A stretch of 64,000 nt of DNA, taken from NCBI GenBank assembly GCA_964347305.1, contig CAYFYC010000004.1, positions 12,784 through 76,783 on the forward strand. The letters are read 5' to 3'. Of the stretch, positions 35,327 through 61,101 are shown piece by piece; position 1 is the first letter of the stretch, and every line of letters starts with the position of its first letter. The notes under the pieces are model-generated. The model saw nothing but the letters and a program-made list of their open reading frames with translations. It did not search any database and was not told where the DNA came from. The DNA is from an uncultured Acidimicrobiaceae bacterium. GTDB taxonomy: Bacteria; Actinomycetota; Acidimicrobiia; Spongiisociales; UBA5794. The position numbers and the translations under genes are program-made.

Positions 35327-36030
35327 TGGAATTCACCCTGCTCGGGGCGGCGCTCGCTGCCGCCGTCGCACTCAACCTCGGCATCAGATGGGACGCCGTC
35401 AGGGCAAACGCCGCCGACTGCGTGCGTGAGCACTGGGATCGAGCGATCGCCGCTGCGGTGAGCGGCGTCTTCGCCGGGAGGATCGTCGCCATGATCCTCG
35501 ACGGCGTCAGCCCCTTCAGCCGCGATCTCATCATCGTGAGAGCCGGAGTCGACACGGTCGGCGCCACCATCGCCGCCATCGCCGTCGTGGCGTGGCTGGG
35601 CCGTCACGACCTCGCCGTTGCCCTGGACGGCCTCTCCGCCGCCGCTCTCTTCGGACTGGCCGGCTGGCATGCCGGATGCCTGGTCCGCGACGCCTGTCTG
35701 GGGACGGTCACGGATCTGCCGTGGGGCATCGTGGCGTCGTCCTCGTCCGTCGCCCGGCACCCCGTCGAGCTCTACGCAGCAGCTCTCTTGCTCGCGGCCG
35801 CCTTCCTGCTCTCGTGGCTGCGGTCCAGGGCTGCGCTCGCACCGTTCGGGGCCGCGGCGTTGGCGCTGGCCGCAGCGGGTGCGATTCGGTTACTCACCCA
35901 GCCGATGCGACTGTCACTCGGTGGTGGGCCCATGGCGTGGTACGTCCTGGCGGTGATCGTCGGTGCCGGTGGGGCCGCCATCGCCCGCACCCGGTTCAGC
36001 TCCGGCGCTTCCGGCGCAACAGCTGACTGA
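35326..36030 (+). CDS. Short Lgt-family (prolipoprotein diacylglyceryl transferase-like) membrane protein
   Basis: TDLPWGIV......ARHPVELYAA resembles the Lgt TDxPWG...RHPxQLYE block. Multi-TM. The ATG overlaps the TlpA stop (TGATG). Confidence 0.5.
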   Translation: MEFTLLGAALAAAVALNLGIRWDAVRANAADCVREHWDRAIAAAVSGVFAGRIVAMILDGVSPFSRDLIIVRAGVDTVGATIAAIAVVAWLGRHDLAVALDGLSAAALFGLAGWHAGCLVRDACLGTVTDLPWGIVASSSSVARHPVELYAAALLLAAAFLLSWLRSRAALAPFGAAALALAAAGAIRLLTQPMRLSLGGGPMAWYVLAVIVGAGGAAIARTRFSSGASGATAD

Positions 36031-38734
36031 GCGTCTCCTCCTCGGGGAGCATCTCCCGGCGGCCGGCCTCGTCGGCGTCCGGCACAGGAGCCGCGGTCTC
36101 CTCGTCGCCTCCGAGCTGCACGGGATCGTCGGTGGCGATGGCCTCGACCCGCCGCGGTGCCCGGGTCAGGGTCTTGCGCCACTCGGCGACATCGCCCCTC
36201 GCCACGATGATCCTCCGCAGGGCGACGTCGGCCATGAACAGGGCAAGCGCGAGCGCTGCGAGCAGCGGCCAGAGCTCCGATGTGGCAGATCCTCGATTGG
36301 GAGTGAGATCGAATGCCTGGATCGGGAGCGGGTCGACCCGGCCGTCCGTGACCTCGGCCACGTCTGCGGCGAGATCGTCGTTGGGGTCGCTCAGCGCGAA
36401 CTCGCGGGCGTAGCCGGAGACCACTCCGTTGCTGCCACCTGCCACCAGGCCGGTCGGTGTCTCCACCCGCACCGCGACCCATTGGGCGCCGGCCTCCTCG
36501 ATCGGCACCCGAGCCTCGAACCGTGTCTCCGTGGATCGCTGCATCGGGACCTGGACGACATCACCATCCGACGACCGGATCTGGGCGACGCCGACGGCGT
36601 CGAGGGGCGCCTCCGCGTCGAACGTGATCTCGAGGAACCCGCCGTCGATGCGCACGGAGGGTGGGGCTTCGCGCCCGGGTGGCAACACGTCGGCGACGAC
36701 GGCGCCCCAGAACTCTACGAAGCCGTCCCACTCGACCCAATCGGCGGACCACCGAACGGTTGCATCGGAGGTCCAGGTGCTGGCCCTGCCGAGGCCTCGC
36801 TGCCACGTGGCGAGCAGCGGGTCGCCCGGTCCGATCTCGAGCGGCAGGCTGGCGGTCGCCTTCGGACGCGTGAGCACATAGCCGCGCAGCGGCGGCGTGG
36901 CCGTCAGACCCGCGGTCACCTGTGAGGCGGCCCCGAGGGCGGGGACGAAGGCGCCCTCGGCGATGAGCGGCCGAGCGACACGCAGGGTCTCCTCCACGAA
37001 GATCTCGGGGATACTCTGCAGATCGCGGCCCGGGTAGTACTGACCTCCGCCCAGGGCAGCAGTGCGACGCAGGGCGTCTCCGGTGCCCTCACCCGTGCCC
37101 AGGACCGACAGGGTGATCCCGGCTTGGGCCACCTCGCGCGCGGCCTCGAACAGATCTGGATCGTCCCCCCAGCCGTCGGTGAACAGCACGATGTGCTTGA
37201 TCTCCTCGGGAGCGTTCTTCAGTTCCTCGAGCGCGGCCCGCAACGCAGGCGAGATCTCGGTGTCCCCCTGTGGCGTGAGCGTCGCGAGCGCAGCCTCGAT
37301 GGTGGCCTGATCGGGTTTCACCCCGAGGGGCAGGGCCCAGCGCGTACCCGACGTGAAGGCGAGGACGCCGACTCGGTCCTGATCCTGGAGCGCATCGATG
37401 GCCAGCGCCGCACCGGCCCGTGAGATGTCGGTCTTGTTGATCCCACCCTGCTCGGACGGATCGTGATCTCCGCCACTCCCACAGTGACAATCGGCCATCG
37501 AACCCGACGTGTCGATGACCAGCACCTCGGCCACCGGCTGACGGCGCAGGAGATCGTCGGGATCCGAGGTCACCGGCAACAGCGCTTCGAGGGGACCGTC
37601 CTGGTAGCCACCGAGCCCGAATGCCTGGTCTCCCCCGACCACGACGAGACCTCTGCCGAAGTCCTCGACGAAGGAGGCGAGGTCGTTGGTCTGCTCATCG
37701 GGTGGCGAGGCGACGTTGACCAACACGACACCGTCGAATCCGATCAGCTCGTCGGCAGTCGGGATGTTGGTGAAGCGTGACACCTCCACACCTGCTGCGG
37801 TGAGCGCTCGAGCCAGGTCGTCTGCCTCTCCCAACCGTCCTTCCACCACTGCGACCTGTGCGGGACCGAGAACCCGCACGATGGCCTGACCGGTGTCGTT
37901 CTGCGGCACGCGATCTCCTACGGCGTCGACGCTCGCGGTCACGACCATGGCCCCCGCCTCGGTGGCGGGAACCGTGAAGCCGACCGTGTTCACGCCGGGC
38001 TCGAGTGTCGCGGTCACTCGCTGGACGACGCCATCGACGTCGAGGGAGATCGTCGCCTCCCCGGAGAGCGTCGAGGTCACCTCGACCTCGATGTCGACCT
38101 CGTCGCCGATCCGGGCGGTCGTGGGAGCATCGACCGCCGTCACCAGCGCGTCCGCGGTGCGCCCGGTGTCGAGGACGACGACGTCGACCGAGACCCCGGC
38201 GTCGGCCAACTCTGCGGCCGCCGCCCTGGCGTTCCCGAGCGTCTCCACTGCGTCGGTGAGCACGATGATCCGTCGCGAGCCTTCCGTGGGAAGGATGGCC
38301 GCTCCACCGCGGAGCGCGGCGGCGAGATCCGTGGCGGACTCGTCGACGACGGTCCTCGCACCGGTGTACACCACGTTCTCGCTGAGTGCCGTGTCGAGGC
38401 GAAGCTCCGCACCGAACACGCCGACGGCGAGCCGGTCACGAGGTCCGGCACCGGCTGCAGCGTCTCGCACGTAGGCGTCCTGGGCCTGGCGCACGTCTGT
38501 CGTCACGGATGCAGATCGGTCCAGGAGGAACAACACGGCGCGGTCGCTCGACGTACGAACGAGGCCCGGCCCTGCGAGGGACAGCGCGATGAGTACCACG
38601 CCGGCGACACGCATGCCCACGGCGATCCGATGTTGCCGCAGCGGCACGGCGCGGCGGCCATGCCGGGCGACGTAGAGGACCACCGGTAGGGCAACCACGA
38701 GGACGAGCAGGAACAGCGGTCTGGCCAGCGTCAT
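35996..38734 (-). CDS. Large membrane-anchored protein with two von Willebrand factor A domains (BatB-like, extended)
   Basis: N-terminal TM followed by VLFLLDRSASVT (MIDAS 1), a second VLVIDTSGSMADC (MIDAS 2), and a C-terminal TM LWPLLAALALALFMADVAL. The ATG at 38734 overlaps the upstream stop (ATGA). Confidence 0.8.
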   Translation of the reverse strand: MTLARPLFLLVLVVALPVVLYVARHGRRAVPLRQHRIAVGMRVAGVVLIALSLAGPGLVRTSSDRAVLFLLDRSASVTTDVRQAQDAYVRDAAAGAGPRDRLAVGVFGAELRLDTALSENVVYTGARTVVDESATDLAAALRGGAAILPTEGSRRIIVLTDAVETLGNARAAAAELADAGVSVDVVVLDTGRTADALVTAVDAPTTARIGDEVDIEVEVTSTLSGEATISLDVDGVVQRVTATLEPGVNTVGFTVPATEAGAMVVTASVDAVGDRVPQNDTGQAIVRVLGPAQVAVVEGRLGEADDLARALTAAGVEVSRFTNIPTADELIGFDGVVLVNVASPPDEQTNDLASFVEDFGRGLVVVGGDQAFGLGGYQDGPLEALLPVTSDPDDLLRRQPVAEVLVIDTSGSMADCHCGSGGDHDPSEQGGINKTDISRAGAALAIDALQDQDRVGVLAFTSGTRWALPLGVKPDQATIEAALATLTPQGDTEISPALRAALEELKNAPEEIKHIVLFTDGWGDDPDLFEAAREVAQAGITLSVLGTGEGTGDALRRTAALGGGQYYPGRDLQSIPEIFVEETLRVARPLIAEGAFVPALGAASQVTAGLTATPPLRGYVLTRPKATASLPLEIGPGDPLLATWQRGLGRASTWTSDATVRWSADWVEWDGFVEFWGAVVADVLPPGREAPPSVRIDGGFLEITFDAEAPLDAVGVAQIRSSDGDVVQVPMQRSTETRFEARVPIEEAGAQWVAVRVETPTGLVAGGSNGVVSGYAREFALSDPNDDLAADVAEVTDGRVDPLPIQAFDLTPNRGSATSELWPLLAALALALFMADVALRRIIVARGDVAEWRKTLTRAPRRVEAIATDDPVQLGGDEETAAPVPDADEAGRREMLPEEETLSQLLRRKRRS

Positions 38735-40548
38735 GCGGTGATCCTCTCCAGGGACGAGCGACGCCATGGCCGCGGCCGCCCGTAGGCGACCCACCACTCC
38801 AGCAAGACGATGAGCAGCACTGCGGCGAGAATCGCAGGCGCCCACTCCCGCAACAGACCGCTCTCTTCGGGATCGACGTCATCGGACACGATGGTCGAGA
38901 GCTGTCTCGCCGTCCCGGCCGATTCGGTCGCGGCGAACTGGCGCACCGTTCGCAGGTCGGAGACGGTCGTTTCAGAGTCGTCGGTCACGACGACCCGGTA
39001 CACGCCCGGCAGCTCGGTGGCCGTGTACTCCAGCGTTCCGGCGACGAGCCGGTCGACCCTGCCATCGGGTCGCGTCACCTCGGCTGTCGTCCCCACCGGT
39101 ACGGCAACGGGGATTGGGGTGCCCGCGACCGCCGTCGATCCACTGGTGAGGCCACCGCCTCCCAGATACGACATGATGCGAGAGCCGAGGATCGGGAAGG
39201 TGACGAGGACAGGGAGGTTGCTCTCGACGAGATCGAACGTGAAATACACGACGCGGTGACCCTCGACCTCGCCGAGCAGCACGAGATCGGTCGAACCGGC
39301 ACTCACGATGGGAAACCACCCCGGAGCGTCGATGATCTGCGCCTCACCGATCACGATCTCGCTCATGTCGATGCCGTCGAGGATCGGATCCGACGGCTGC
39401 TGAAACGTGATCACCGGGTTCTCGAGACGACCGACGATCTCGATGCCGGGAGGCGGGGTGTCCGGTGCGATGAGCCACGTGGGACGGTCGATCGTCGCCG
39501 CCTGTGCTCCATCGACGATGGCCAGGTCGGGAGCCTCGCCCACGGCAGGGCCGAATCCGGGCAGCGCTCGCACCAGCGCATCGAGAAACGGTGACCCCTC
39601 GCCCACCACCGTCACCGACAGCTCCCTGGCGCCGGAGAGCACGAGCGATGCCACGTCGTCGAGCGGGTTGGCGTCTTCGTTGTCGCGAAGCGCCACCGTG
39701 ACGACGTCGCCGGGTCCCGCATCCACCTCGATGATCTCGCGAGTTCGTGCGCCGGGGTCGACCGCGAGCGGGGTGGAGCCGGTCGCCAGCCCCTCGACCA
39801 TCACGTCGAGGTCGACCTGAGCCGGGCGCCCGGCGAAGTTCGCGATCTCCACGAAGAGCCGCACCGCACCTTCGCCCGGAACACCCGTCCCGAAGGCGGT
39901 GATGGCGATGTTGTCGTTCACCTGGTCATACAGCACGTGGAGTGCATCGACCACCGGTTCGCCGACGGCACCCTCCAATCCGCCGTCGGACATCAGCAGC
40001 ACCGACGTCGGGCGGTCGGGTGTGGCGAGGCCACGGGCGAGCTGCAGCGCCCCGGCGAGGTCTTCGACCCCGCCACCCACTTCGAGCCCGTCGAGCGCGG
40101 CGAGAACGTCGGACGGCTCTCTCGAGAACGCGGCCAAGACCCGGGGCCTCGGTCCCGCCTCGACGACCGAGACGAGCTGCGCCTCGGATGCATCGCCGGC
40201 GAGCCGTCGCGCCTCGGCCAGGGCCGCTTCGAAGCGACCCGCGGTGGCCATGGAGCCGGACGTGTCGATGACGATCACCGTGTGCGGGCCCAGCAAGGTC
40301 GCCTCACGGAAGAAGGGCCTGGCGAGCAACAGGGCGAACGCGGCCAGCGCCAGCAGCTGGAGCAGCAGCGCGGCAGTGATCTTGAGCCGCTGCCAGGGCA
40401 GCGACGAACTCACGAACTGTTCCTCGCCCTCCCAGAGCATCGTCGACGGGACTTCCTGCACCTGGCGCCGGCTTCGCAACATGTAGAGCACGACGAGCGG
40501 AATCGAGAGCGCCAGCACACCCAGGGCAGCCGGAGCGAGGAAACTCAC
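38731..40548 (-). CDS. BatA-like protein: N-terminal double-TM aerotolerance-regulator domain plus a VWA domain
   Basis: MSFLAPAALGVLALSIPLVVLYMLRSRR...MLWE (BatA_N type), VIVIDTSGSMAT (MIDAS) and a C-terminal TM. Confidence 0.8.
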   Translation of the reverse strand: MSFLAPAALGVLALSIPLVVLYMLRSRRQVQEVPSTMLWEGEEQFVSSSLPWQRLKITAALLLQLLALAAFALLLARPFFREATLLGPHTVIVIDTSGSMATAGRFEAALAEARRLAGDASEAQLVSVVEAGPRPRVLAAFSREPSDVLAALDGLEVGGGVEDLAGALQLARGLATPDRPTSVLLMSDGGLEGAVGEPVVDALHVLYDQVNDNIAITAFGTGVPGEGAVRLFVEIANFAGRPAQVDLDVMVEGLATGSTPLAVDPGARTREIIEVDAGPGDVVTVALRDNEDANPLDDVASLVLSGARELSVTVVGEGSPFLDALVRALPGFGPAVGEAPDLAIVDGAQAATIDRPTWLIAPDTPPPGIEIVGRLENPVITFQQPSDPILDGIDMSEIVIGEAQIIDAPGWFPIVSAGSTDLVLLGEVEGHRVVYFTFDLVESNLPVLVTFPILGSRIMSYLGGGGLTSGSTAVAGTPIPVAVPVGTTAEVTRPDGRVDRLVAGTLEYTATELPGVYRVVVTDDSETTVSDLRTVRQFAATESAGTARQLSTIVSDDVDPEESGLLREWAPAILAAVLLIVLLEWWVAYGRPRPWRRSSLERITA

Positions 40549-41410
40549 GATGCGACCCCGGCCTCGATGAGCTGCCGCAGTGCTGCATCGACGGCATCCT
40601 GGGCAGCGACGGTGAGGACATACTCCATCCCGGCCCGACGAGAACGGAGCGCCGCCTCCTCGATGAAGCCGCGCAGCCGCTCCTCGTAACGGTCGGCGGC
40701 AGCGGTGTCGAGTGAGACCGGAACCTCGCGGCGGGTCTCGACATCACGCAGCGACAGATCACCGCTGAGATCGGGGGCGATCTCGTCCGGAGCGAGCACG
40801 TGCAACACGGCTCCCCCACCGATGCTCCCGATGATGTCGATCGATTGATCCCATCCTGGAGCCAGCAGATCGGACACGAGCACGATCGGGCCGCGATGGG
40901 CTCCGGCGGCAGCGAGGAGGTGAGCCGCACCGGGGAGATCCGTGCCCCCTTCCGTCTCGAGATCCTCGATCCAACGCTCGATCGCAGGCCATGAGCCCGG
41001 GTGGCGGGCCCACCGGCTGCGGAGCGAAACACGACCTTCGGCAGGCACGGTGACGATGCGGACCCGCTCACCAGATGCGAGACCGAGATAGGCCATGGCT
41101 GCAGTGAGACGCTGCGCCGTCAGGAACTTCTCGCCGTGGGACATGGACCGCGACGTGTCGATGACGATCTGCAAGGGCAACTCGTCCTCTGCCTCGAACA
41201 GACGCACCAGGACCACGCCCATGCGCGCCCAGAGGTTGTAGTCGATGCGCCGGAAATCATCTCCGGGGAAGTATTCGCGGTAGTCGGCGAAGTCCAGGGA
41301 CTCACCGAGCTGCACGGAGCGGTGACCGCCCGCCCACATGCCCTTCACGCGTCGCCTGTGCTGGAGAGCGAGACGCTCGAGCCGGGCCCGGAGTTCGGGC
41401 TCGAGCAGCA

Positions 41411-41411
<1 letters not shown>
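40545..41411 (-). CDS. DUF58 family protein (MoxR-associated, VWA-like)
   Basis: GESLDFADYREYFPGDDFRRIDYNLWAR and VIDTSRSM are typical of DUF58. Confidence 0.88.
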
Positions 41412-42375
<964 letters not shown>

Positions 42376-42379
<4 letters not shown>

Positions 42380-44037
42380 GAGCCCAACTCCGTGAAGTAG
42401 ATGCGAACGATGTCCTGGAGGTTCGTGGGAACGGTCATGCGGTCCAGCGCGGTCAACGCCTGCGCCTGGTATTCCGCAAAGCGGTTGACATACGGGACCA
42501 GCGGGAGATTCTCGACACCCTGGCCGCTCGTCGAGCCGCCGAGCTGACCCGTGGGGTCGTCGGGGTCGAAGTCGACCCGGTTCTCGTCTCCCCGGATCCA
42601 GTCGACCGGGTCGAGGATCTGGGAGCGGGCCGGGTCGCGAACGATGTCGTTGTCGCCCTGGCCCTGTCCATCAGGACCGCTGCCGCTCCCGGTGCCGCCG
42701 GTGACGGGATCCGGGTTGTTGGCCCCGCTGCCGGAACCTCCCCCACCACCGCCTTGACCCTGGCCCTGGCCTTGACCCTGGCCCTGTCCCTGTCCCTGGC
42801 CCTGTCCCTGGCCCTGTCCCTGTCCCTGACCCTGTCCCTGACCCTGACCCTGTCCCTGGCCCTGACCCTGTCCCTGACCCTGACCCTGTCCCTGGCCCTG
42901 GCCCTGTCCCTGACCCTGACCCTGGCCCTGACCTTGGCCCTGGCCTTGACCTTGGCCCTGGGCGTCGCGCAGATCGGCCAGCTGTCGCTGCGCGTCGCGA
43001 ACGGCGTCGCGGGCATCGGCAACGGCTCCGGCGCGGTCGACACGCTGTTGCGCATTGGCGAGCGCCTGTTGGACGGCGTCGGCCGCACCGGCCACATCTC
43101 CCGTCTCGGACGAGAGGGCGGCGGCGAGATCGTCGAGCGCATCACCGAGATCTCCTGCCGAGGGGCCCACCTGATCGGCGAGCTCCTGGACCTGCTGCGC
43201 CAGCTCACGGCGCGCGGCCGGATCGAGGTCATCGGCTTCGGAGGGCAGGTTCTGCAACTGCTCGGACACGGAGGAGCCGGAAGCGAGTGGTTGCTGCCCG
43301 AGCTTGGCTTCCAACCCTGCGAGCGCGGTCTTGATGGCGAGCGACTGCTCGTCGGAAGCATCGGCGAGCTCCTGGTCCGCCTCGCCCAGCTCACGGAGCG
43401 CCTCTTCGACATCTGCGGCATCACGAAGCTCCTCGGCGCGACGACGCAGATCGTCGGCGATCTCGGGGTCTTCGTTGGCATCGGCACGTTCTTCCAGCTC
43501 ACGCGCCACGGTGTCGATGATCGCTGCGTCCGCTTCCCGCGCTGCCTGGATGGCGTCGGCAGGAGAGGTGGGGATCGCAAGCACGAGGGCGGCGACCACG
43601 GCGAGCACGGAGAGGAGGATCAGCCGCGGCGAGGGTGCCACCCGACCCCACGCATCGAACGTGCGGCCTTCGGCCCACACCGCGGAGCGAGAGATCTGGG
43701 CGTCCTCGATGGATGTCCTGCTGGTCTTGGCCGACAGTTCCAGAGCCGTGGACACCTGGTCCCTGCCCCCGAGCCTCTGGTCGACGGCGATCGCAGCCAC
43801 CATGGAATCGGGGCGCCGCACCAAGGTGTAGATCACGACACCGATGAGCGCGGCAGCACCCACGCCGAGCGCCACGGGCTCGGCCCACGGCATGACGATG
43901 CGACGGGCGACAGCGAGGAGCACCGAGGAGGCAGCAGCAACGACCCCGATGGCGACGAGGGTGCGGCGCATGGCACCCGCTGCGGTGAGTCTGTGCCGAC
44001 CTGCGGTGATGATCCTGGTGAGAGATTCAGGCAGCAT
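42376..44037 (-). CDS. Uncharacterised membrane protein with a coiled/acidic region and a (Gln-Gly)x35 repeat
   Basis: Three predicted TM segments in the first ~150 aa, then an Ala/Asp/Glu/Leu-rich region, the QG repeat, and a C-terminal segment ending ...VPTNLQDIVRIYFTELGS. It is overlap-coupled to both neighbours. Confidence 0.7.
42751..42960 (-). repeat. Hexanucleotide coding repeat, 35 units, encoding perfect (Gln-Gly)n
   Basis: The plus strand reads gccttg/accctg/gccctg/tccctg units without interruption. This corresponds to CAG/CAA-GGC/GGT/GGA on the coding strand. Confidence 0.9.
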
Positions 44038-45127
44038 CTGTGGTCCTTCTCCGATACACCCGTCTTCTCGAGGCAGGCGCCCTCACGAGCCGGGTTGTTC
44101 CGTAGAGCGCCAGCATTGAGACGCTCAGTTCGAAGGCGACGGTTCCCGGCCAGGCGGGCGGGCGGATGTTCGGCGGCCGGTCGATCTGCTGTGGGGCGGG
44201 GACCCCACCGGGGAAGTCGCGAAAGCCGGGCTCGATTTCCACAAAGACCTGCCCGGGGAAGCCGAAGCCGCCGAACAGATCACTGCTGGCGGCCGATGCG
44301 GCGAAGCCCTGTCGCTTCACGAGCATGGCGCGGAACGGGATGTAGGGCGACGGCACCAGCTCTCCCTGGAAGGCGAGCACGTCGCTCGAGGCGTCGACGA
44401 GCCCGACGTAGGGATTGATGACGGCGCTGTACAGCTCACGGCCGTTGTCGCGCGCGTAGCCGCTCTGGAACCGGGTGAGACCGGGATCCACGTCGATCAG
44501 GAAGAACTCGGCCACGAGGAGGGCGAGCGTGCCGAAGACGAGCGCAACGGTCCACATGTAGGAGCCGAGCACCGCACCCTGCACGGACTTCGCCCGCGCC
44601 GACACCCAGATGGACACCGAGCCGATCATGATGCTGGCCGTGAGGACCAGCGCCACGCCGCCGACGAGGTCCATCAGGTCGACACCACCGAGCAGGATGG
44701 GGATCACCATGAGCGGCGTCGTGGCGATCAGCAACAACACGACGTAGGCGAGGGCTGCGCTCAGCTTCCCCCACACGATTCGCCAGGCGCTGAGCTGGCT
44801 GACCTGGAGCAACTGGAGCGTCTGCCGCTCCTTCTCCCCCACGATCGCCACCGCCGCCTGACCGGGCACGACGAAGACGACGGCGGTGAGGAGACCCATC
44901 AGCAACACATGGAGGATGAAGCGACCCATCGATGCCGAGGCGAACAGCGTGCCGAGACCGCCGAACCCGAATGAGGTGAACCGATCCTCGGCTGCATTCC
45001 GAGCCACGACGTATGCCAGGAAGGTGAGCACGCCGGCGGCGAGCACCCAGATCGACAGCAGGATCGGCGAACGCAGGGTCCTGAAGCGCTCCTGGAGCTC
45101 GCGCCGCAACACCGGGTTCATCGTCAT
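44027..45127 (-). CDS. ABC-2 type transporter permease
   Basis: NPVLRRELQERFRTLRSPILL N-terminus and six hydrophobic segments. It lies immediately downstream of, and overlaps, the ATPase gene. Confidence 0.75.
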   Translation of the reverse strand: MTMNPVLRRELQERFRTLRSPILLSIWVLAAGVLTFLAYVVARNAAEDRFTSFGFGGLGTLFASASMGRFILHVLLMGLLTAVVFVVPGQAAVAIVGEKERQTLQLLQVSQLSAWRIVWGKLSAALAYVVLLLIATTPLMVIPILLGGVDLMDLVGGVALVLTASIMIGSVSIWVSARAKSVQGAVLGSYMWTVALVFGTLALLVAEFFLIDVDPGLTRFQSGYARDNGRELYSAVINPYVGLVDASSDVLAFQGELVPSPYIPFRAMLVKRQGFAASAASSDLFGGFGFPGQVFVEIEPGFRDFPGGVPAPQQIDRPPNIRPPAWPGTVAFELSVSMLALYGTTRLVRAPASRRRVYRRRTTDAA

Positions 45128-46077
45128 TGCCCGTCCTCGCCTTTCTCATCGGTGAGCTGGAGGAACAGCTCCTCCAGACCCAGGGTGCGCATCTGCCAGC
45201 CGGCCACCGGCACCTCTGCATTGACGATCTCACGCAACAGCGCCGCCGATGCCTTCTCGTCGCCGTCGAGGACGAACGACATCCGGTTGACCTCGACATC
45301 GATGTCGCTGACCTCGGGCTTCGCCCTCAGCATCGCCTCGAGCTTCGGCGAGGATGCCGCCGCCACGGTTGCCTCGATCCTCCGTGTCGCCCGGAGCCGC
45401 TGCCGGATCGAGTCCACGGGACCCTCGGCGACGATCTTGCCGTGATCCACGATCGCGAGATGGGAACACATCCCCTCGAGCTCGGACAGGATGTGCGACG
45501 AGATGATGATGGTGCGTCCCATGCGGTTGAGCTCTGTGATCAGTTCACGGAGATCGACGCGGGCACGGGGGTCCAGCCCCGACGCGGGCTCGTCGAGGAC
45601 CAGCAGATCGGGATCGTGCACGAGCGCTCGCGCCAGCGACAGCCGCTGCTTCATGCCTCGAGAGAGGCCGTTGACGTCGGCGTCCGCCTTGTGCTCCAGA
45701 TCCACCAGTGCCAATAGATCGGCGACGACGGCGGGCCGGGCGCTGGGACGGATGTTCTGGGTCGCGGCGAAGAACTCGAGATACTCGCGACTGGAGAAGC
45801 CCTCGTAGACGCCGAAGAAGTCCGGCATGTAGCCGACATGCTGACGAACCGCGGTCGGCGACACCTGGGGGTCGACACCACCGACCCGCACTCGCCCGGC
45901 ATCGCGACGCAGCAGCGAGGTGATGAGCATCATCGACGGGGTCTTGCCCGCGCCGTTCGGCCCGATCAGCCCGAGCACCGAGCCCTCCTCGACGGTGAGG
46001 GTCGCGTCATCGAGCGCGACCGTCCCGTTGTACGCCTTGCGGACGCTGTCGAATTCGACGATCACGTCGTCACCCAC
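45124..46077 (-). CDS. ABC transporter ATP-binding protein
   Basis: GPNGAGKT Walker A, LSRGMKQRLSLARAL signature, LLVLDEPASGLD Walker B, ISSHIL H-loop. Confidence 0.93.
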   Translation of the reverse strand: MGDDVIVEFDSVRKAYNGTVALDDATLTVEEGSVLGLIGPNGAGKTPSMMLITSLLRRDAGRVRVGGVDPQVSPTAVRQHVGYMPDFFGVYEGFSSREYLEFFAATQNIRPSARPAVVADLLALVDLEHKADADVNGLSRGMKQRLSLARALVHDPDLLVLDEPASGLDPRARVDLRELITELNRMGRTIIISSHILSELEGMCSHLAIVDHGKIVAEGPVDSIRQRLRATRRIEATVAAASSPKLEAMLRAKPEVSDIDVEVNRMSFVLDGDEKASAALLREIVNAEVPVAGWQMRTLGLEELFLQLTDEKGEDGQ

Positions 46078-48167
46078 GAGAGCTGGAACCGCTGGAGCTG
46101 GAGGCTCTCCTCGAAGAACTCCTGGTCCTCGTTGAGACTCGCCCGGACGATCAGCTCACCACCGGGCGAGCGCTTCGTGGCGAGATCGATGGGATCGCCC
46201 CAGTCGTATGGAACGAACGATCGACTCGCCCAGTCGTACACCTCGACCTTGCGCAATTGGGTGAACGAGGGCCGGATGACCCCGGACCCGCTCACATCGA
46301 CCGGGAGGTCGTAGCGGAAGAGGAACTCGTCGGCGCCGTAGGCGTAGATCTCGTCGTAGTACTGCTCGACGGACGAAGAGCCTGTGACGTCGAGCAGCGT
46401 GGGGATGACCGGGCGGTCCTGACGCAGGCTCGCCGGCAGGTCGAACTCCTTGATGAAGAGCGTCGAACCGGCGGCGGCGAGGTTGCGCCCGTCGATGGCG
46501 ACCGGCGTGTCGAGTGAGTCGGTGAAACCGAAGAAGTAGGTGCCGTCGCGCAGCAACTTTCGGTCGATGGACTCGGCCTCGTAGGAGAGGGCCGAGAGCA
46601 CCTGATACGTGGTCTCGTAGAAGTTCGGGTCGGCAAACGCCCGCCGCTGGGCCGTTTCCAACACCACCGGTTCGTAGCGGGTACCCCGGTTGCGCTGGGC
46701 GATCCTCAGCTCCTGGGGCTGGTTCGGGACGAGATCCCCATCTCTCGTCGTGACCGTGTAACCCACGCCGTCGACGACGAGACCCCAGCTCCAGAAGGTG
46801 TACGGCGAGGAGTTGGTCACGGTGGTCACGCCGCCTTCGCCGACTGCGACGTCGAGCTGGAGCGGCTCTGCGCCCGAGACCCTCGCCTCGGCGGCCCCGA
46901 CGCCGAGATCCTGGAGGTTGAACGTGATGCTCTGAGGATCGTCTGCATCCTGAACGCCCGAGGCGAACCCGAACCCTTGGGCAGGGGCGATCTGCCAGCC
47001 GTCCGGGAATGCGAGAGTGCGATCGCCCCCCGTGGCCACCTGCACGACGGCGCCGGCGCGCCCGGTCACGGTCTCGCCTCTGTCGACGAAGATCGAAGCG
47101 GAGGTGACGGCGGCGTCGGCGACCTGGGCTCGTCCGGCCAACCAGAAGCCGGCGACGAAGAGCACGGACAGGGCCGGCACGGTGAACCATGCGAGCTCGG
47201 GTCGGCGAAGCCGGCGGAGGACGACGAAGTTCACCGGACCGACGAGGAGGACGAACAGCGCGATGCCGAGGAGCAGCCAGGAGAGACCGGGAACGGCGGC
47301 CTCACGTCCGGCGGACGCTGCGGAGACCAGCCCTGGTCCCTGGTTGAAACCTTGATTGCGCAGGAGACCGGGATTGTCGATGGGGCGGAGGATCGTGCCC
47401 CAGTCGGCGACGGTCACCGACCCGACGTCGGCCACCGCGACCAGCTCACCGTCGCCGACGGTGTCGACGGCGAAGGCGGTCCCGGGCCAGACGACGGCTC
47501 CTCCGGAGTCCGCAACCACGCCGATGTCACCCGGAGCGCCGACGAGGACACCCCCATCGTCGACCCAGCCGGCGATCTGGTCGAGCACGTCGCCTGAAGC
47601 GGCGGCCAGCCCGTCGTCCCCGATCACGAGGTAGTCGACGATCGGGAGACCTGCCACCACGTCGTCGGGGCTCACCCTGACGATCTCGACATCGAAGTCG
47701 ACAGGCTCGGGCGTCGCTGCGCGGAGGGAGGCCTCGGCACCGTCGGCACCGAGCAGGGCGACGACGACCGCACGGAGCGGAACCGTCACCCGGAGCTGCA
47801 GGCTCTCGAGTTGCCTCGTCTCCTCTCCGGACGTGTCGACGAGCACGACGTTGACGACGCGGCGATCGCCCAACGGGGCGGCAGTGATCTGCAGTGACTT
47901 GACACCACCTGCGGGAACCTCGATGGCTTCGCTCGTGGTGGTGCCGCCGGCCGACACGTCGAGCCGACCCACGAGCAGCAACTCGGAGGAGATCTCGATG
48001 TCGACCACGGTGTCACGAGCGGGATCGACGAACCCACCGACGCCGACCGAGGCTTCGAGCGACCACGTCTTCGGCGCTTCCTGAGCCGCCGCCGGAGGAA
48101 CGACGAGGCCGGCCACCACCATCGCCAGGATGGCCACCTTGAGCGTGCGTGTGATCGTTCCTCCCAC
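46062..48167 (-). CDS. Uncharacterised 701-aa secreted/membrane protein, first gene of the ABC/MoxR operon
   Basis: Signal-like N-terminus VAILAMVVAGLVVPPAAAQEAP, two central TM helices (WLLLGIALFVLLVGPVNFVVL, FTVPALSVLFVAGFWLAG), and large flanking soluble domains. I recognise no family. Confidence 0.65.
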   Translation of the reverse strand: MGGTITRTLKVAILAMVVAGLVVPPAAAQEAPKTWSLEASVGVGGFVDPARDTVVDIEISSELLLVGRLDVSAGGTTTSEAIEVPAGGVKSLQITAAPLGDRRVVNVVLVDTSGEETRQLESLQLRVTVPLRAVVVALLGADGAEASLRAATPEPVDFDVEIVRVSPDDVVAGLPIVDYLVIGDDGLAAASGDVLDQIAGWVDDGGVLVGAPGDIGVVADSGGAVVWPGTAFAVDTVGDGELVAVADVGSVTVADWGTILRPIDNPGLLRNQGFNQGPGLVSAASAGREAAVPGLSWLLLGIALFVLLVGPVNFVVLRRLRRPELAWFTVPALSVLFVAGFWLAGRAQVADAAVTSASIFVDRGETVTGRAGAVVQVATGGDRTLAFPDGWQIAPAQGFGFASGVQDADDPQSITFNLQDLGVGAAEARVSGAEPLQLDVAVGEGGVTTVTNSSPYTFWSWGLVVDGVGYTVTTRDGDLVPNQPQELRIAQRNRGTRYEPVVLETAQRRAFADPNFYETTYQVLSALSYEAESIDRKLLRDGTYFFGFTDSLDTPVAIDGRNLAAAGSTLFIKEFDLPASLRQDRPVIPTLLDVTGSSSVEQYYDEIYAYGADEFLFRYDLPVDVSGSGVIRPSFTQLRKVEVYDWASRSFVPYDWGDPIDLATKRSPGGELIVRASLNEDQEFFEESLQLQRFQLSWVTT

Positions 48168-48249: not shown

Positions 48250-48825
48250 TCAGGAGGATGCCAGCAGGCCGTCCACGACCTCGCGGATGTCGGGAGCGCC
48301 GATGGCGCCGTACCAGGTGTCGGCGACGCGACCGTCGGCCGTGATGGCAAACGTGATCGGCTGATACCTCGCTCCATAGAGGTCCCAGATCGAGTCGTCG
48401 AGCCCCCATTGCAGCGCATCTCCGAAGAGCGCTTCAGCCCGCGCAGCGGTCGACTCGAGATCGCTGCGACCTGCGACGGCCACGAAGTCGACCCGGCCTT
48501 CGTACTCGGCAGCAACCTGTGCGACGACGGGCAACTCCCGCCGGCAGGTCGGTCACCACTCGGCCCACACCACGAGGTACACGGGGTTGCCGGCCTCCGA
48601 GAGGACGAACTCGCCCTCGGGCTGCAGACTCAGCGTGAAGTCCGGAGCGACGGGTCGATCATCCGTAGCGGACCCGGCCGTGGTGGCGGACCCGCTCGTG
48701 GTGGCGGACCCGCTCGTCGTCGGCGCAGTCGACTCGCCCCCACCGCACGCCGCCAAGCCGGCGGCCATGACGACGGCAACGGCCAGCAGGCCGGTGCGAC
48801 GAGCGGTCCCACGAGAAGCCAACAT
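48250..48825 (-). CDS. TlpA/ResA-like thioredoxin-fold lipoprotein interrupted by one in-frame TGA at the first Cys of CxxC (selenocysteine candidate or pseudogene)
   Basis: Track ORFs 48553..48825 and 48250..48534 share a frame. The joined reading is ...NPVYLVVWAEW-TGA-PTCRRELPVVAQVAAEYEGRVDFVAV.... Lipobox AAGLAACGG. Confidence 0.6.
48515..48549 (-). promoter_or_regulatory. Interrupted hairpin immediately 3' of the in-frame TGA (SECIS-like candidate)
   Basis: mRNA ACCUG-C-CGGCGGG-AGUUG-CCCGUCG-UCGCA-CAGGU gives 5-bp and 7-bp stems and an apical loop AGUUG starting 17 nt after the UGA. Confidence 0.3.
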
Positions 48826-48906
48826 GGGACCACGCTATCCGGTGTGCGTCTCTAGCCGAAGCTTCCGTGCGACTGTTCACAGAACCTTCAGACCTGACTT
48901 CGTCGG

Positions 48907-49917
48907 TCAGGAGAAGGCGCGGATGTTCTCCACGACGGCGCGAGCCGCACCCGAGTCGATCGCCTGGGCGGCCAGCGCCGCGGCGTCGACGAATCCCTCT
49001 GCCAGCCCGCCGACGACGATGGCCGGTGCGGCATTGATGATCGTGGCGTCGCGGTGCGGGCCCTCGGCGCCCTCGAGCACATCGAGGGTGATGGCGAGAT
49101 TGTCCTCGGCGGTGCCACCGATGATCGACTCCACCGGCGACCGGGTGACTCCGAAGTCCTCGGGTGTGAACTCGGCGGTCGTGATCTCGCCTCGCTGGAG
49201 CCGGTAGATGAAGGAGGGTCCTGCGATCGACATCTCGTCAAGACCCTCTTCTCCGTAGTAGACGAAGGCGTACTCGAGCCCCCGGTTCTTCAGCACGTGG
49301 ATCATCTTCTCCGCCACGGCCGGGACGCTCACGCCGATGGTCGCCAGCGTCGCACCTGCCGGATTGCAGAGCGGTCCCAGGAAGTTGAACACGGTCCGTA
49401 GACCGAGCTCGCGACGAACCGGGCCGGCAAAACGCATCGCCGGGTGGTAGTTCGGGGCGAAGAAGAACCCGAAGCCCACCTCCCGAATCATCTCCACCGT
49501 CCGGTCCGGCGTCATGTCGAGATCGACACCGAGCGCTTCGAGGAGATCCGCAGAACCGGTCTGCGACGACGCCGCACGGTTGCCGTGCTTGGCGATCTTG
49601 ACTCCGGCGCCTGCAGCGACGAGCGAGGCCGTCGTGGAGATGTTGAAGGTACCGAAACCATCGCCACCGGTCCCGACGAGATCGACCACCGGGACCCCCA
49701 CATCCACGGTGACGGCGGCGTCGAACATGGCGTCGACGAAGCCGGTCATCTCATCGGCCGTCTCGCCCTTGGCTCTGAGCCCGGCGAGAAACGCCGCAAT
49801 GCGAACGGGGGATGCCTCGCCGCTCATGATCTCGGCCATGGCGGTTCGCGCCGTGTCCCGATCGAGGTTCCCACCCTCGACGATCGTCTCGAGCGTGCTG
49901 GTCCACGAGAAAGTCAT
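48907..49917 (-). CDS. trpD: Anthranilate phosphoribosyltransferase
   Basis: VDLVGTGGDGFGTFNISTTASLVAAGAG, KHGNRAASSQTGSADLLE, FFFAPNYHPAM. Confidence 0.93.
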   Translation of the reverse strand: MTFSWTSTLETIVEGGNLDRDTARTAMAEIMSGEASPVRIAAFLAGLRAKGETADEMTGFVDAMFDAAVTVDVGVPVVDLVGTGGDGFGTFNISTTASLVAAGAGVKIAKHGNRAASSQTGSADLLEALGVDLDMTPDRTVEMIREVGFGFFFAPNYHPAMRFAGPVRRELGLRTVFNFLGPLCNPAGATLATIGVSVPAVAEKMIHVLKNRGLEYAFVYYGEEGLDEMSIAGPSFIYRLQRGEITTAEFTPEDFGVTRSPVESIIGGTAEDNLAITLDVLEGAEGPHRDATIINAAPAIVVGGLAEGFVDAAALAAQAIDSGAARAVVENIRAFS

Positions 49918-49959
49918 CGACGGAGACCATAGCCCGCGTCGAAACGGCGCAATCGGCCG

Positions 49960-50241
49960 TCAGCTGGCGAGGGTGCGAACGAGCCGCCGGCGCTGCCGCT
50001 CGGTCATGCCGCCCCACACGCCGTACCGTATCTCCGCCTCGATGGCGTACTCCAGGCACTCCGCCCGAACGGGGCAGGTTGCGCAGATGGCGACGGCTGC
50101 GGCGGTACCGGCCCTGTCCTCGGGGAAGAAGATGTCCGGGTCTTTGTCCCGACAGGCCGAGAAGACGACCCATGGCCGCTCTTCGGTGATCGGGATGGGA
50201 ATGAATTCGGTCTGATCGCCGAGCAGATCGTGCATGGGCAC
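49960..50241 (-). CDS. WhiB-family Fe-S transcriptional regulator
   Basis: C-X..-CATCPVRAEC with GVWGGMTERQRRRL at the C-terminus. Confidence 0.9.
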   Translation of the reverse strand: MPMHDLLGDQTEFIPIPITEERPWVVFSACRDKDPDIFFPEDRAGTAAAVAICATCPVRAECLEYAIEAEIRYGVWGGMTERQRRRLVRTLAS

Positions 50242-50408
50242 CTCCAGAGGTGTCTCTCGTTCACCGCCCGTTCCCCTCTATGACGCCTTCTGGGTGGGTT
50301 TGGTTCCCGTACGGGACAACGAGATGCCGCGCCGTACACTCCACCGGACTCTGTACCCACACCGCCCATGAGCCCCGGCATGCACCCCACACCCTCGAAC
50401 GTCGCGCA

Positions 50409-50783
50409 ATGAAGTCGGTCGCGTGGGGTGCCGTGCTCTACGGAGCCTTGACCGGGTTGGCCGGGGCACTGCTCGTCTTCGTCGTGCTCGGGATCGCAGG
50501 TCTCGACAACGATCTCCGGGGTCAGAGCATCCTGATCTTCCTCACCTATGCGGCGTTCATGGTCGCCGGCTTCGTGGCGGGCAGGTTCTCGCATCAGGCG
50601 CACGTCCTCAATGGAGGTCTGGCCGCCATGGTGCTCTTCGCGCTGCAGGTCGTGGTGTCGGGGGCGACCACGGTCACGATCGTCCTCGGAAGCGTCGTTG
50701 CCGCCGTGATCGGCTCCGCCGGTGGCGCGCTCGGTCAGTGGGTCCTGGAACGGCGGGATGGGGGTTCACAGGACACGCCGTGA
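50409..50783 (+). CDS. Small integral membrane protein (four hydrophobic segments)
   Basis: MKSVAWGAVLYGALTGLAGALLVFVVLGIAGL.... The start is chosen at the ATG at 50409; the upstream part of the track ORF is non-hydrophobic and probably not coding. Confidence 0.5.
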   Translation: MKSVAWGAVLYGALTGLAGALLVFVVLGIAGLDNDLRGQSILIFLTYAAFMVAGFVAGRFSHQAHVLNGGLAAMVLFALQVVVSGATTVTIVLGSVVAAVIGSAGGALGQWVLERRDGGSQDTP

Positions 50784-50800
50784 CCGGTACCGTGTCGTGG

Positions 50801-51132
50801 CGAGTCCGGGAGGCGGTCGCGGCCGGGCAACCGGCTGAGGAAAGTCCGGACACCACAAGGCAGGATGCTGGCTAACAGCCAGGCGGGGCGACCCGATGGA
50901 AAGTGCAACAGAGAGCAGACCGCCGATGGGCGTCGATCTCCGGATCGGCGTCACAGGCAAGGGTGAAACGGTGGTGTAAGAGACCACCAGCGGTGTCGGT
51001 GACGACACCGGCTCGGTAAACCCCATCCGGTGCAAGGCCAAGTCGGGACAGAGTCGCCTGCTCGTCACGTCCCAGGTGGGCCGCAGAGACAGATGATCGC
51101 CCACGACAGAATCCGGCTTACACCCGGACTCG
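50801..51132 (+). ncRNA. rnpB: RNase P RNA, bacterial type A
   Basis: Conserved blocks GAGGAAAGTCCGGAC, AGGGTGAAACGGTGGTGTAAGAGACCACCAG, GGTAAACCCCA and ACAGAATCCGGCTTAC. P1 pairs CGAGTCCGGG with CCCGGACTCG. The ends are approximate to within a few nt. Confidence 0.9.
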
Positions 51133-51167
51133 CACGCACGGAGCCTTCGATTTCAGGAGCTCCGCGG

Positions 51168-58524: not shown

Positions 58525-59175
58525 ATGTTTCTCTTCCGCAACAAGACGTCCATGCCCACGGCCGACGACGCCCTGCCGGGCCGAGCCGAGTCGATCCCCG
58601 TCCCCGACACGCACTGGGTGAACGGCAACCGCATCGTCCCGCCGTTCCCCGATGGACTCGAGGTCGCGTACTTCGGGATGGGGTGCTTCTGGGGCGCGGA
58701 GCGGGTCTTCTGGCGACTCGACGGCGTGTATTCCACGGCCGTCGGATACCAGGGCGGCTACACCGAGAACGCCAGCTATCAGGAGGTCTGCTCGGGACGC
58801 ACCGGTCACGCCGAGACGGTTCTCGTCGTGTACGACCCGATGACAATCGGCTACGACCAACTGCTCAAGGCGTTCTTCGAGGAGCACGCCCCGACGCAGG
58901 GGATGCGCCAGGGCAACGACGTCGGCACCCAGTATCGCTCGACGATCTACACCACCACCGCCGAGCAATTGGCGATGGCGAAGCTGGCGCGTGATGAGTA
59001 CCAGGACCGTCTCGCTGCGTCGGGATGGGGTGAGATCACCACCGAGATCCGCGAGGCGCCCGAGTTCTATTACGCCGAGGAGTACCACCAGCAGTACCTG
59101 GCCAAGAACCCGAACGGCTACTGCGGCCTCCAGGGCACGGGCGTGAGCTGCCCGACGGGGTTATCGCTCGACTGA
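58525..59175 (+). CDS. msrA: Peptide methionine-S-sulfoxide reductase
   Basis: [48 protein letters not shown]. Confidence 0.93.
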
Positions 59176-59262
59176 GCAGTCGAGACCGGCGGCCGGTACC
59201 GTGACTTCGCGGCCAGGCACATCTATCTTGCCGCCGGCACACTTCCCCGAGGAGGCGACGAC

Positions 59263-61101
59263 GTGAGGCGAAGGACAGCGCGCGCGGCCGTGTTGCTCAC
59301 CCTGTTCGCCGCGCTCGCCGTCCCCATCGTGGCCCACGCCGCACAGTTGTGTGGTGGCGCCGAGATCACCATCCACGGCAGCAGCGAAGCCGAAGAGATC
59401 ACGGGCACGTCGGGTGACGACGTCATCCACGGATACGGTGGAGCGGACGTCATCGATGGCGGCGGGGGCGACGACATCATCTGCGGCGGGAACGGCGCCG
59501 ACGTGATCTCCGGCGGCTCCGGCAACGATCGCATCATGGGCGGCCGCGGCGCCGACGACATCCATGGCGACGAAGGCAACGACGTCGTCCATGGCAACGA
59601 CGGCCACGATGCGATCGACGGCGGCCCGGGAGACGACCGCCTGCTCGGAGGGTCGGGTGGCGACCGGCTCGACGGCGGAGCCGACCGTGACATCGCCTAC
59701 GGCAACGACGGGAACGATCTCCTCATCGGAGGACCCCAAGGAGACCGGCTCTTCGGAGGAAGAGGGGCCGACTCCGTGCTCGGTCGGTACGGGAACGACA
59801 TCGTCCACGGCGGCCCACATCGAGACGAGCTGCGCGGCGGTGCCGGCGACGACGTACTCGAGGGCGGTCCGGGCTCCGACCTGCTGGCCGGTGGAACCGG
59901 TGACGATCGCGGCATCTCCGGCCCCGGCTTCGACGAGTGCCTCTCGACCTCCCGTGACGACGGGTGCGAGGGCCCCGTCTTCCTCGAGACCTTCGACTTC
60001 GATGCGCCATCACCGACCCCGCTGCCGAACTCCGCGTCCTTTTCGGTCTCCGTGAATTCACGCATCGGCGCAACGCAACACCAGCTCGCAGCCATGGAGG
60101 CCGACCACGGCCCCGATTGCGCTCCCCTTCCCGCGACCCACACAATCACCGCCTACGAGGATGCGGTCTATCGCTGCCGCGACCACCTGATGACGGCGGT
60201 GAGCTCCGGGCTGTTCACCGACCGCACGAACATGGCGGTGGCGATGTTCTCGCCGAATCAGATCCTCGATTTCAGTGGCGGCCCCGCCACGATCACGTAC
60301 GACGCATCGACACTCCGGGCCTCGCGTCGCGACTGGTACGACATCTGGATCACGCCATTCGACGACCTGCAACGCATGCCGCTCCAGGCGGACCGGGTCC
60401 TGATGCAGGGGCCGTCCGAAAACGCTCTCGTGGTCTCGCTGCGCGCCTTCTCCTCGAAAGGAGTCTTCGACGCGTCCATCTTCGACGGGTTCGTCGAGAC
60501 CGAGATCATCGGCTCGAACGATGGCTACGAGACCGTGCTCACGCCGAGCCGTACCGCACGCTCGACGTTCGAGATCGTGATCGAGAGCGACCATCTCAAG
60601 GTCTGGATGCCCGAAGAAGGTCTCGTCTTCATCGACCAGGCCATACCGGAGCTCCCCTTCACGCGAGGCATCGTCCAATTCGGACACAACTCCTACGAGG
60701 TGTTCGAATGCGACGAGGGCTGCGCCGAGGGCCCGGCAACCTGGCACTGGGACGACATCCGGCTCGCACCCGCCGAGCCGATCCGCGCGCTGCCGGCGTC
60801 ACGCCGCTTCGTGAACGCGTCGACCGCCTCGTTCGTGAGCTTCCCCGCACCGGCGCCCGCGGACAGCTGGATCCAGTTCACGGCGATCGGAAAGGAACTG
60901 GAGGTCTCCTTCGATTCCGGGGCGACGTGGCTGGCAGCCGTGACCCAGCACGATCGGGAGAACTACGTGTGGCGCTACCGCAACTACTGGATGCCGATGC
61001 CGGAGAGTGCGACGACCATGCACGTCCGCGGGACGAACACGGCCGAGCATGTGTGGCAGTTCCAGGACATCTCGATCCTGGTCCGCGACGACAACGGCTG
61101 A
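59263..61101 (+). CDS. Secreted calcium-binding protein with about 19 RTX-type nonapeptide repeats and an uncharacterised C-terminal domain
   Basis: Signal peptide LLTLFAALAVPIVAHA. GGxGxDxxx repeats (GGGGDDIICGGNGADVISGGSGNDRIMGG...) span nt 59401-59907. About 395 aa of unrecognised sequence follow. Confidence 0.8.
   Translation: MRRRTARAAVLLTLFAALAVPIVAHAAQLCGGAEITIHGSSEAEEITGTSGDDVIHGYGGADVIDGGGGDDIICGGNGADVISGGSGNDRIMGGRGADDIHGDEGNDVVHGNDGHDAIDGGPGDDRLLGGSGGDRLDGGADRDIAYGNDGNDLLIGGPQGDRLFGGRGADSVLGRYGNDIVHGGPHRDELRGGAGDDVLEGGPGSDLLAGGTGDDRGISGPGFDECLSTSRDDGCEGPVFLETFDFDAPSPTPLPNSASFSVSVNSRIGATQHQLAAMEADHGPDCAPLPATHTITAYEDAVYRCRDHLMTAVSSGLFTDRTNMAVAMFSPNQILDFSGGPATITYDASTLRASRRDWYDIWITPFDDLQRMPLQADRVLMQGPSENALVVSLRAFSSKGVFDASIFDGFVETEIIGSNDGYETVLTPSRTARSTFEIVIESDHLKVWMPEEGLVFIDQAIPELPFTRGIVQFGHNSYEVFECDEGCAEGPATWHWDDIRLAPAEPIRALPASRRFVNASTASFVSFPAPAPADSWIQFTAIGKELEVSFDSGATWLAAVTQHDRENYVWRYRNYWMPMPESATTMHVRGTNTAEHVWQFQDISILVRDDNG

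Follow-up and report, generated by a model that had tools for sequence, protein, structure and literature searches.

Selenoproteins that combine a TlpA-like fold with a UxxC motif have been known since 2005, through a 'thiol-disulfide isomerase-like protein' from the Sargasso Sea metagenome (PMC1088965). A 2026 review lists the cd02966/UxxC family in its Table 1, beside a Prx-like thiol:disulfide oxidoreductase, and also includes a thiol:disulfide interchange protein, a UGC-type TlpA protein and SaoT (PMC13188914). Within the Acidimicrobiia, Actinomarina has selA, selB, selC and selD, so members of this class can carry all four genes (bioRxiv 10.64898/2026.04.03.716425); we found no literature on selenocysteine (Sec) in Acidimicrobiia other than Actinomarina. 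Here, we analyzed a 64-kb stretch of DNA from an uncultured Acidimicrobiaceae bacterium (contig CAYFYC010000004.1; the whole stretch is called the window below), in which an in-frame TGA lies between two open reading frames (ORFs) at 48250..48825 on the minus strand. We conclude that this TGA is very probably a selenocysteine codon and that the two ORFs are one selenoprotein gene. A UxxC selenoprotein with a thioredoxin fold had been put forward as a candidate in a preliminary description of the window, and the proposal is now supported by a Sec/Cys pair conserved across dozens of genomes, by coding constraint after the UGA and by a conserved hairpin that resembles a selenocysteine insertion sequence (SECIS).

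The product shares with the 'thiol-disulfide isomerase-like' selenoproteins a TlpA-like fold, Sec as the first residue of UxxC, widespread Cys homologues and a SECIS right after the UGA. The gene is a further member of this known kind of selenoprotein, and its clade may already have been catalogued. With the WAxxUGC selenoprotein (NF041054) and SaoT it has in common a Sec nucleophile in a thioredoxin-fold redox motif, but it scores only 27.1 bits against the NF041054 cut-off of 300, gives no match to SaoT, and has the motif W-U-P-T-C rather than U-G-C. The Acidimicrobiia clade, the lipoprotein anchor, the invariant SECIS and the pair of neighboring genes are described here from the data and not from the literature. 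Our analysis corrects an annotation and documents a lineage-wide, exported candidate selenoenzyme with a very clean SECIS; it reveals no new principle.

Reading frame and conservation of the UGA codon

The minus-strand ORFs 48825..48553 (90 aa, ATG start) and 48534..48250 (94 aa, TTG start) share one frame, and nothing but the TGA (48555..48553) and six sense codons lies between them, which is the layout given in the preliminary description. Read through, they yield a product of 191 codons that begins with MLASR and runs through LAAC27-GGG, APDFTLSL, VYLVVWAEW-[UGA91]-PTC94RRELPVV and YQP156 to a terminal LLASS. The gene would start with the ATG at 48825 and end with its own terminator, a TGA at 48252..48250. 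The internal TGA is the sole interruption of the 48825..48250 frame, so the earlier statement that the frame is otherwise intact holds. Alignment with Cys-containing orthologues places it at the first, nucleophilic Cys of the family motif W-C-x-x-C, again as had been proposed. The UGA codon (48553..48555) would thus encode Sec91, the N-terminal nucleophile of a U-P-T-C redox motif in which Cys94 (48544..48546), invariant in two alignments, is the resolving cysteine. Pro156 of Y-Q-P (48358..48360) occupies a near-invariant column, aligned with the QP of the Mycobacterium tuberculosis proteins DsbF and DsbE, at the position of the cis-proline loop opposite the active site; by analogy with the thioredoxin-fold family, it is probably in the cis conformation.

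When one genome per GTDB species was scanned, 25 loci with an orthologue were recovered, each in a metagenome-assembled genome (MAG) of the Acidimicrobiia/Actinomycetota, with 38-64 % protein identity. TGA was present at exactly the same codon in 21 of the 25, and TGC or TGT in the other four. Metagenomes contributed 38 further orthologous loci, 33 with TGA and five with Cys codons; the closest of these relatives (L064, 74 % identity) has TGA at the Sec91 codon. Taken together, 54/63 orthologous loci carry TGA and 9/63 carry TGC or TGT (protein identity 38-74 %), and Cys occupies the position of Sec91 in 31 database homologues. Such recurrence of TGA at one codon goes far beyond chance. The Sec/Cys pair that characterizes bacterial selenoprotein genes is therefore found here in both forms. 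The Sec91 codon has been exchanged repeatedly with Cys codons, but never with Trp codons, both among the orthologous loci and on the tree described below. An independent strain, represented by the Logan assembly of run SRR30410469 (L063) and 99.1 % identical to window positions 48542..50980, shares the TGA and differs in codons that flank it (VFWAEW versus VVWAEW in the window; TGT CGA versus TGC CGG). When the relatives were checked for TGA or TGC, as the preliminary description had suggested, the TGA proved to be conserved and not confined to one strain.

Across several organisms, protein conservation extends to either side of the UGA (FWAEW-U-xxCRRELPV...AVAGR...WGLDDSIWDLYG..QP). Among 49 TGA-containing (Sec-type) genes, pairwise differences at the first, second and third codon positions were 0.33/0.27/0.54 downstream of the UGA and followed the same pattern, 0.23/0.22/0.47, upstream of it. 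No in-frame stop occurs in the ~100 codons after the UGA in any of the 49 genes, versus 2.3-2.6 stops per gene in the other two frames. From the codon-position pattern and the lack of in-frame stops we conclude that the downstream half is translated in frame in all 49 organisms' genes. TGA also serves as the terminator of this gene in 17 of 25 complete orthologues, the one in the window included, and ends ~80 % of window ORFs with high G+C content at third codon positions (GC3). Genome-wide reassignment of TGA is therefore excluded, and the recoding is local. UGA being the predominant stop codon here, the Sec-UGA must be told apart from stops.

The downstream hairpin and decoding of the UGA

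A SECIS-like hairpin lies at 48525..48543 (minus strand), with a 7-bp stem, a 5-nt loop, AGUUG, and a minimum free energy (MFE) of -13.3 kcal/mol; it was identified by comparative folding, synonymous constraint and published criteria. It starts 10 nt after the UGA, and its loop starts 16 nt after it. Sec-type genes carry the 13 nt CGGGAGTTGCCCG, or a closely similar sequence, at a fixed distance 3' of the UGA. Alignment columns 16-22 pair with columns 28-34 (window 48543..48525): in 42 distinct sequences 92.5 % of cells were paired, versus 36-70 % when the 3' arm was slid, and none of 500 shuffles matched the observed pairing or covariation score. Compensatory changes were seen at all three basal pairs (e.g., cga/ucg to caa/uug, gca/ugc or cgu/acg), and the four CGGG/CCCG pairs of the stem core (48540..48528) never vary. 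Codon usage, which does not depend on structure prediction, tells the same story. Among the highly degenerate conserved columns in 22 sequences, codon variation was zero only at Arg CGG (6-fold) and Pro CCC (4-fold) of the stem arms, all others having 0.5-2.2 bits of codon entropy; Leu in the loop is mostly encoded by TTG, which is rare elsewhere.

The 29-nt element of Sec forms folds with an MFE of -12.4 to -14.3 kcal/mol (z -1.5 to -3.6). In the Cys forms L009, L019, L023 and L024 the corresponding stretch reaches only -5.1 to -7.7 kcal/mol, with z near 0, and forms no comparable hairpin. The CGGG-AGUUG-CCCG core occurs once in the 64-kb window. A TGA with this hairpin behind it was matched 60 times in all fetched DNA, and 55 of the matches fall in this gene family, to which the combination is essentially confined.

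Published criteria for bacterial SECIS (bSECIS) elements ask for an apical loop of 3-9 nt on a stem of 4-16 bp, a G as the first or second loop nucleotide, mostly with G or U after it, a UGA-to-loop distance of 16-37 nt and an MFE <= -7.5 kcal/mol (PMC13188914). The window element falls within all of these bounds (loop AGUUG, 7-10 bp, 16 nt, -13.3 kcal/mol). It resembles the bSECISearch consensus (E. coli fdhF/fdnG type) in being a coding-region stem-loop right after the UGA with a small loop in which G is followed by U, but it differs in its very small size (7 bp), in a spacing that is the smallest permitted and in having no evident bulged U. It also differs in its clade-wide invariant stem core and in that a few orthologues, five in number, have a 3-nt ACU-type loop that lacks the consensus G. 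An Rfam search of the window at gathering thresholds returned RNase P only, Rfam holding no general model for bacterial SECIS, and the surroundings of the gene yielded no sites resembling promoters or terminators. Compact and near-invariant, the element can serve as a clean benchmark for SECIS models where GC content is high and UGA predominates among stops.

Several observations weigh against a selenocysteine codon. With ARAGORN, neither the 64-kb window nor the 25 orthologous loci from genomes gave any tRNA, and none of the loci fetched gave an Acidimicrobiia tRNA-Sec. Likewise, tblastn with E. coli SelA, SelB and SelD as queries gave no match in the window or in 125 loci (~1.4 Mb). Missing Sec machinery is expected for 64 kb, but it leaves the trait a prediction for this organism. 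In addition, folding of the single sequence fails to reach significance given the GC content (z +0.33 over 71 nt, -1.6 over 29 nt), so that the case rests on the comparative data. That the machinery is missing from the window and from the ~1.4 Mb of related DNA is what one would see if the UGA were instead read, independently of SECIS, by a near-cognate tRNA (Trp or Cys) or by low-level suppression, with the hairpin only stimulating the process and the product containing W or C in place of Sec. The G-less loops of some orthologous hairpins point the same way. We nevertheless regard such read-through as very unlikely. The UGA stands exactly on the catalytic Cys and has been swapped with Cys but never with Trp codons; a Trp here would abolish the activity of a CxxC enzyme, and Cys can be encoded directly, as it is in nine relatives. 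Moreover, the hairpin agrees with a bSECIS as to its position, size, loop and energy, and it is missing from the four Cys forms that were folded (one other Cys form, L088, keeps it).

An ordinary Cys-type TlpA gene could have been split by a recent nonsense mutation, TGC to TGA being a single transversion, or by a sequencing or assembly error, and gene callers do see two ORFs here. However, the TGA is shared by the 99.1 % identical strain, by the 74 % identical metagenome relative and by 54/63 orthologous loci, and the downstream part is under purifying selection without further lesions, which makes such an origin extremely improbable. The 'very recent pseudogene' and the 'base-call error' considered in the preliminary description are both rejected, given the same TGA in the independent L063 assembly and in 33 of the 38 metagenome loci. 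It is just as hard to credit that the locus makes two polypeptides, a truncated lipoprotein ending at Trp90 and a C-terminal fragment initiated at the TTG six codons past the UGA. This TTG is preceded by GGGAG, but the GGGAG abuts it with no spacer, and in several orthologues the codon is CTT, CTA or CTC, none of them a start. Such a fragment would have no signal peptide, would miss strands one to three of the fold and would retain just half of the redox motif, and the six PTCRRE codons that lead from the UGA to the TTG show strong conservation at the protein level. The earlier remark that the downstream half has neither a signal peptide nor a convincing start thus agrees with the comparative data.

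If the codon does specify selenocysteine, the UGA at 48555..48553 would be recoded during translation, with the hairpin at 48543..48525 recruiting SelB with Sec-tRNA(Sec) to the ribosome. Selenocysteine would be inserted in place of termination, and all other UGAs in the genome, the gene's own terminator included, would be read as stops. The dependence of decoding on SelB and tRNA-Sec in this organism is a prediction from the gene itself. By the same token, this organism and many sediment, soil and marine Acidimicrobiia probably decode Sec.

The only tRNA-Sec in all fetched DNA is that of an unrelated Dehalococcoidia locus (L034, MAG SHYM01000023.1, 2177..2287 and 3514..3611), where it lies ~1.2 kb from a thioredoxin-like match to the query.

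The predicted lipoprotein and its proposed function

The product is predicted from its sequence and from a model of a close homologue to be a lipoprotein with a thioredoxin fold of the TlpA/ResA/DsbE type. Its putative signal peptide (48745..48825, minus strand), read from the sequence, has R5, R9 and R10 in the n-region, a hydrophobic core and the lipobox L24-A25-A26-C27; the A-C-G/S lipobox, part of the lipoprotein signal noted in the preliminary description, is kept in orthologues and database homologues. These features suggest that the Sec protein is exported. A low-complexity Gly/Ser/Thr/Ala linker (residues 28-56; 48658..48744, minus strand), variable in length and sequence among orthologues, leads to the thioredoxin-fold domain (residues 57-191; 48253..48657, minus strand), which was recognized by Pfam, by similarity to DsbF and DsbE and on a proxy model. 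For Pfam scoring, the joined protein was taken with Cys at position 91; it matched Redoxin (PF08534, 39.6 bits, cut-off 26.6), AhpC-TSA (PF00578, 35.9 bits, cut-off 26) and Thioredoxin (24.6 bits, cut-off 23.5).

The fold was assessed on the Cys orthologue P0029, a member of the same clade that is 48 % identical in a gap-free alignment. Its model (pLDDT 96.2) superimposed with TM scores of 0.75-0.88 on ResA, DsbF, DsbE, StoA, CcmG and the pneumococcal lipoprotein thioredoxins Etrx1/2, and this proxy has the features of the TlpA/ResA/DsbE family: an N-terminal beta-hairpin extension, a central insert and the redox motif at the start of helix 1. The family motif is likewise present, W90-U91-P-T-C94 and Y-Q-P156 falling in invariant or near-invariant columns. 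All NCBIfam scores were far under the cut-offs (ResA NF002854, 40.9 bits against 170; DsbE/CcmG TIGR00385, 32.4 against 123, and NF011941, 30.8 against 359; TlpA NF047696, 23.8 against 230; StoA NF041202, 30.5 against 210), as was that for NF041054 given above; hence the protein should not be named ResA, DsbE, TlpA, StoA or WAxxUGC protein.

The best sequence matches among solved structures were M. tuberculosis DsbF (Rv1677; 3IOS, E 9.5e-11), with the motif W-C-P-T-C, which equals that of the window protein except for the Sec, and DsbE/MPT53 (Rv2878c; 1LU4, E 1.4e-8). Like the window protein, both are actinobacterial and single-domain, and both are extracytoplasmic, as is predicted for it, with TM scores of 0.75-0.85 to the proxy model; unlike it, they have Cys and not Sec, and identity is only about 30 %. 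The label 'TlpA/ResA-like' used earlier is therefore right for the fold and can be refined, the nearest characterized relatives being actinobacterial DsbE and DsbF. These two M. tuberculosis proteins act as oxidants in vitro, folding hirudin (PMC3853704). The extracytoplasmic thiol-disulfide reductases ResA, TlpA, CcmG(DsbE), StoA and Etrx1-2 resemble the window protein in fold and in the W-C-x-x-C motif, and their membrane-anchored or lipoprotein topology is of the kind predicted for it.

Once exported, the pre-protein would be lipidated at Cys27 and tethered through its flexible Ser/Thr/Gly linker to the membrane's outer face. There, the selenolate would attack substrate disulfides or other oxidized sulfur, giving a mixed selenosulfide that Cys94 resolves. 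By analogy with the relatives above, the enzyme may work as a reductase, in the manner of ResA, TlpA, CcmG and Etrx, or as an oxidant, in the manner of M. tuberculosis DsbE and DsbF in vitro. A UxxC selenosulfide is more reducing than CxxC and exchanges faster, and for this reason we lean slightly toward a reductase or exchange role. An exported selenoenzyme of this kind would lie beyond the cytoplasmic membrane in a Gram-positive-type cell.

Evolution, annotation and genomic neighborhood

In a rough neighbor-joining tree the window protein belongs to a mainly Sec clade in which at least three Cys lineages are nested (L009 with P0014, P0024 and P0029; P0030; and P0010 with L019 and P0001). It is adjoined by an all-Cys sister clade ('APAWKS' type), and the distant Sec-type homologue L026 branches outside the two clades. 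One Cys form, L088 (362..410 of metagenome contig Ga0307505_10032536), has TGC together with an intact cgaCGGGAGTTGCCCGtt hairpin. Because the hairpin is intact beside a Cys codon, L088 suggests a switch from Sec to Cys so recent that its SECIS is still to decay. With at least three such switches, this single orthologous group forms a natural series that should be useful for learning what Sec gains in a CxxC enzyme.

Public databases hold this enzyme in broken form. At least 15 public gene calls (JGI, NCBI, ENA and Logan) end exactly at ...FWAEW (P0032, P0035, P0038, P0039, P0049, P0050, P0054, P0057-P0061, P0065, P0068 and P0071). For one of them, P0061, the source gives the name 'ABC-type enterochelin transport system substrate-binding protein', a clear mis-annotation. 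No full-length Sec-type product was found in the protein database searched, where Sec-type orthologues appear only as fragments up to ...FWAEW. Since all public gene calls examined are split or end at the UGA, and no NCBIfam model covers the protein, a widespread redox enzyme of the Acidimicrobiia is invisible to standard pipelines.

The gene order WhiB-TrpD-[Sec gene] is conserved. In most genomes a Cys-type paralogue and an Lgt-like gene lie downstream of the Sec gene in convergent orientation; both are present in 26 loci (six more are cut by contig ends). In the window, the TlpA-like paralogue is encoded at 34823..35326 (plus strand). It gives a profile match, is a predicted lipoprotein (lipobox L-A-S-C), reads WASWCIPCRSEAP (WASWCIPC) in its motif region, which confirms the Cys-type W-C-x-x-C motif reported for it in the preliminary description, and adjoins the Sec gene in other genomes. 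Directly after it comes a 234-aa Lgt-like membrane protein of the prolipoprotein diacylglyceryl transferase family (35326..36030, plus strand; PF01790, E 4e-12). The same paralogue-Lgt pair is found at L001 10561..11984 and in 25 further loci. The Lgt-like protein may serve as the cell's housekeeping Lgt or may instead work with the thioredoxin-like proteins. It is a tempting, though rather unlikely, idea that the Sec form is ancestral and near universal in a large Acidimicrobiia clade, that with the Cys paralogue and the Lgt-like protein it makes up a dedicated selenium-dependent redox module on the outside of the membrane of a monoderm actinobacterium, where a selenolate would be of benefit in the oxidizing extracytoplasmic space (for instance through faster exchange or resistance to over-oxidation), and that the invariant hairpin at the minimum spacing represents a lineage-specific SelB recognition code.

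An 8-gene operon on the minus strand (35996..48167) encodes p701, an ABC ATPase, an ABC-2 permease, p553, MoxR, a DUF58 protein, BatA-VWA and VWA-GATase1; p701 (exported, 701 aa) and p553 (553 aa) have no Pfam match. The operon lies between the two TlpA-like genes, so that the paralogue is indeed at its far end, as had been noted. It occupies this place between the Sec gene and the paralogue/Lgt pair in the window and in L005, L006, L009, L016, L018 and L019, but is absent from that position in most other loci, and it behaves as a variable cassette inserted in a subset. The association of the gene with the MoxR/ABC operon made in the preliminary description is correct as to the 82-nt gap to the next gene and the eight co-oriented genes in the window, but it is not conserved elsewhere. 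A functional link between the Sec gene and the MoxR/ABC/VWA operon was therefore rejected, the operon not being a conserved neighbor.

Neither cytochrome-c-maturation, oxidase, ccdA/resBC/cta nor dsbD genes were present among the annotated nearby genes, and no exported Msr was found near the Sec gene. With scores under the NCBIfam cut-offs, no ccdA/resBC/cta genes nearby and an MsrA in the window that has no signal peptide, no specific pathway can be assigned. A GC3-based scan of the window for more selenoprotein genes returned only adjacent genes that share a frame; it also missed the Sec gene described here, so others may be present. At 58525..61101 (plus strand), a cytoplasmic MsrA (PF01625, no signal peptide) is followed, after a TGA and in the same frame, by a 612-aa protein with RTX calcium-binding repeats. 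This pair was rejected as a read-through candidate, its shared frame being coincidental. Upstream of the WhiB-TrpD-Sec cluster, the window also contains a full-length class A RNase P RNA at 50801..51136 (plus strand; Rfam RF00010, 248.5 bits).

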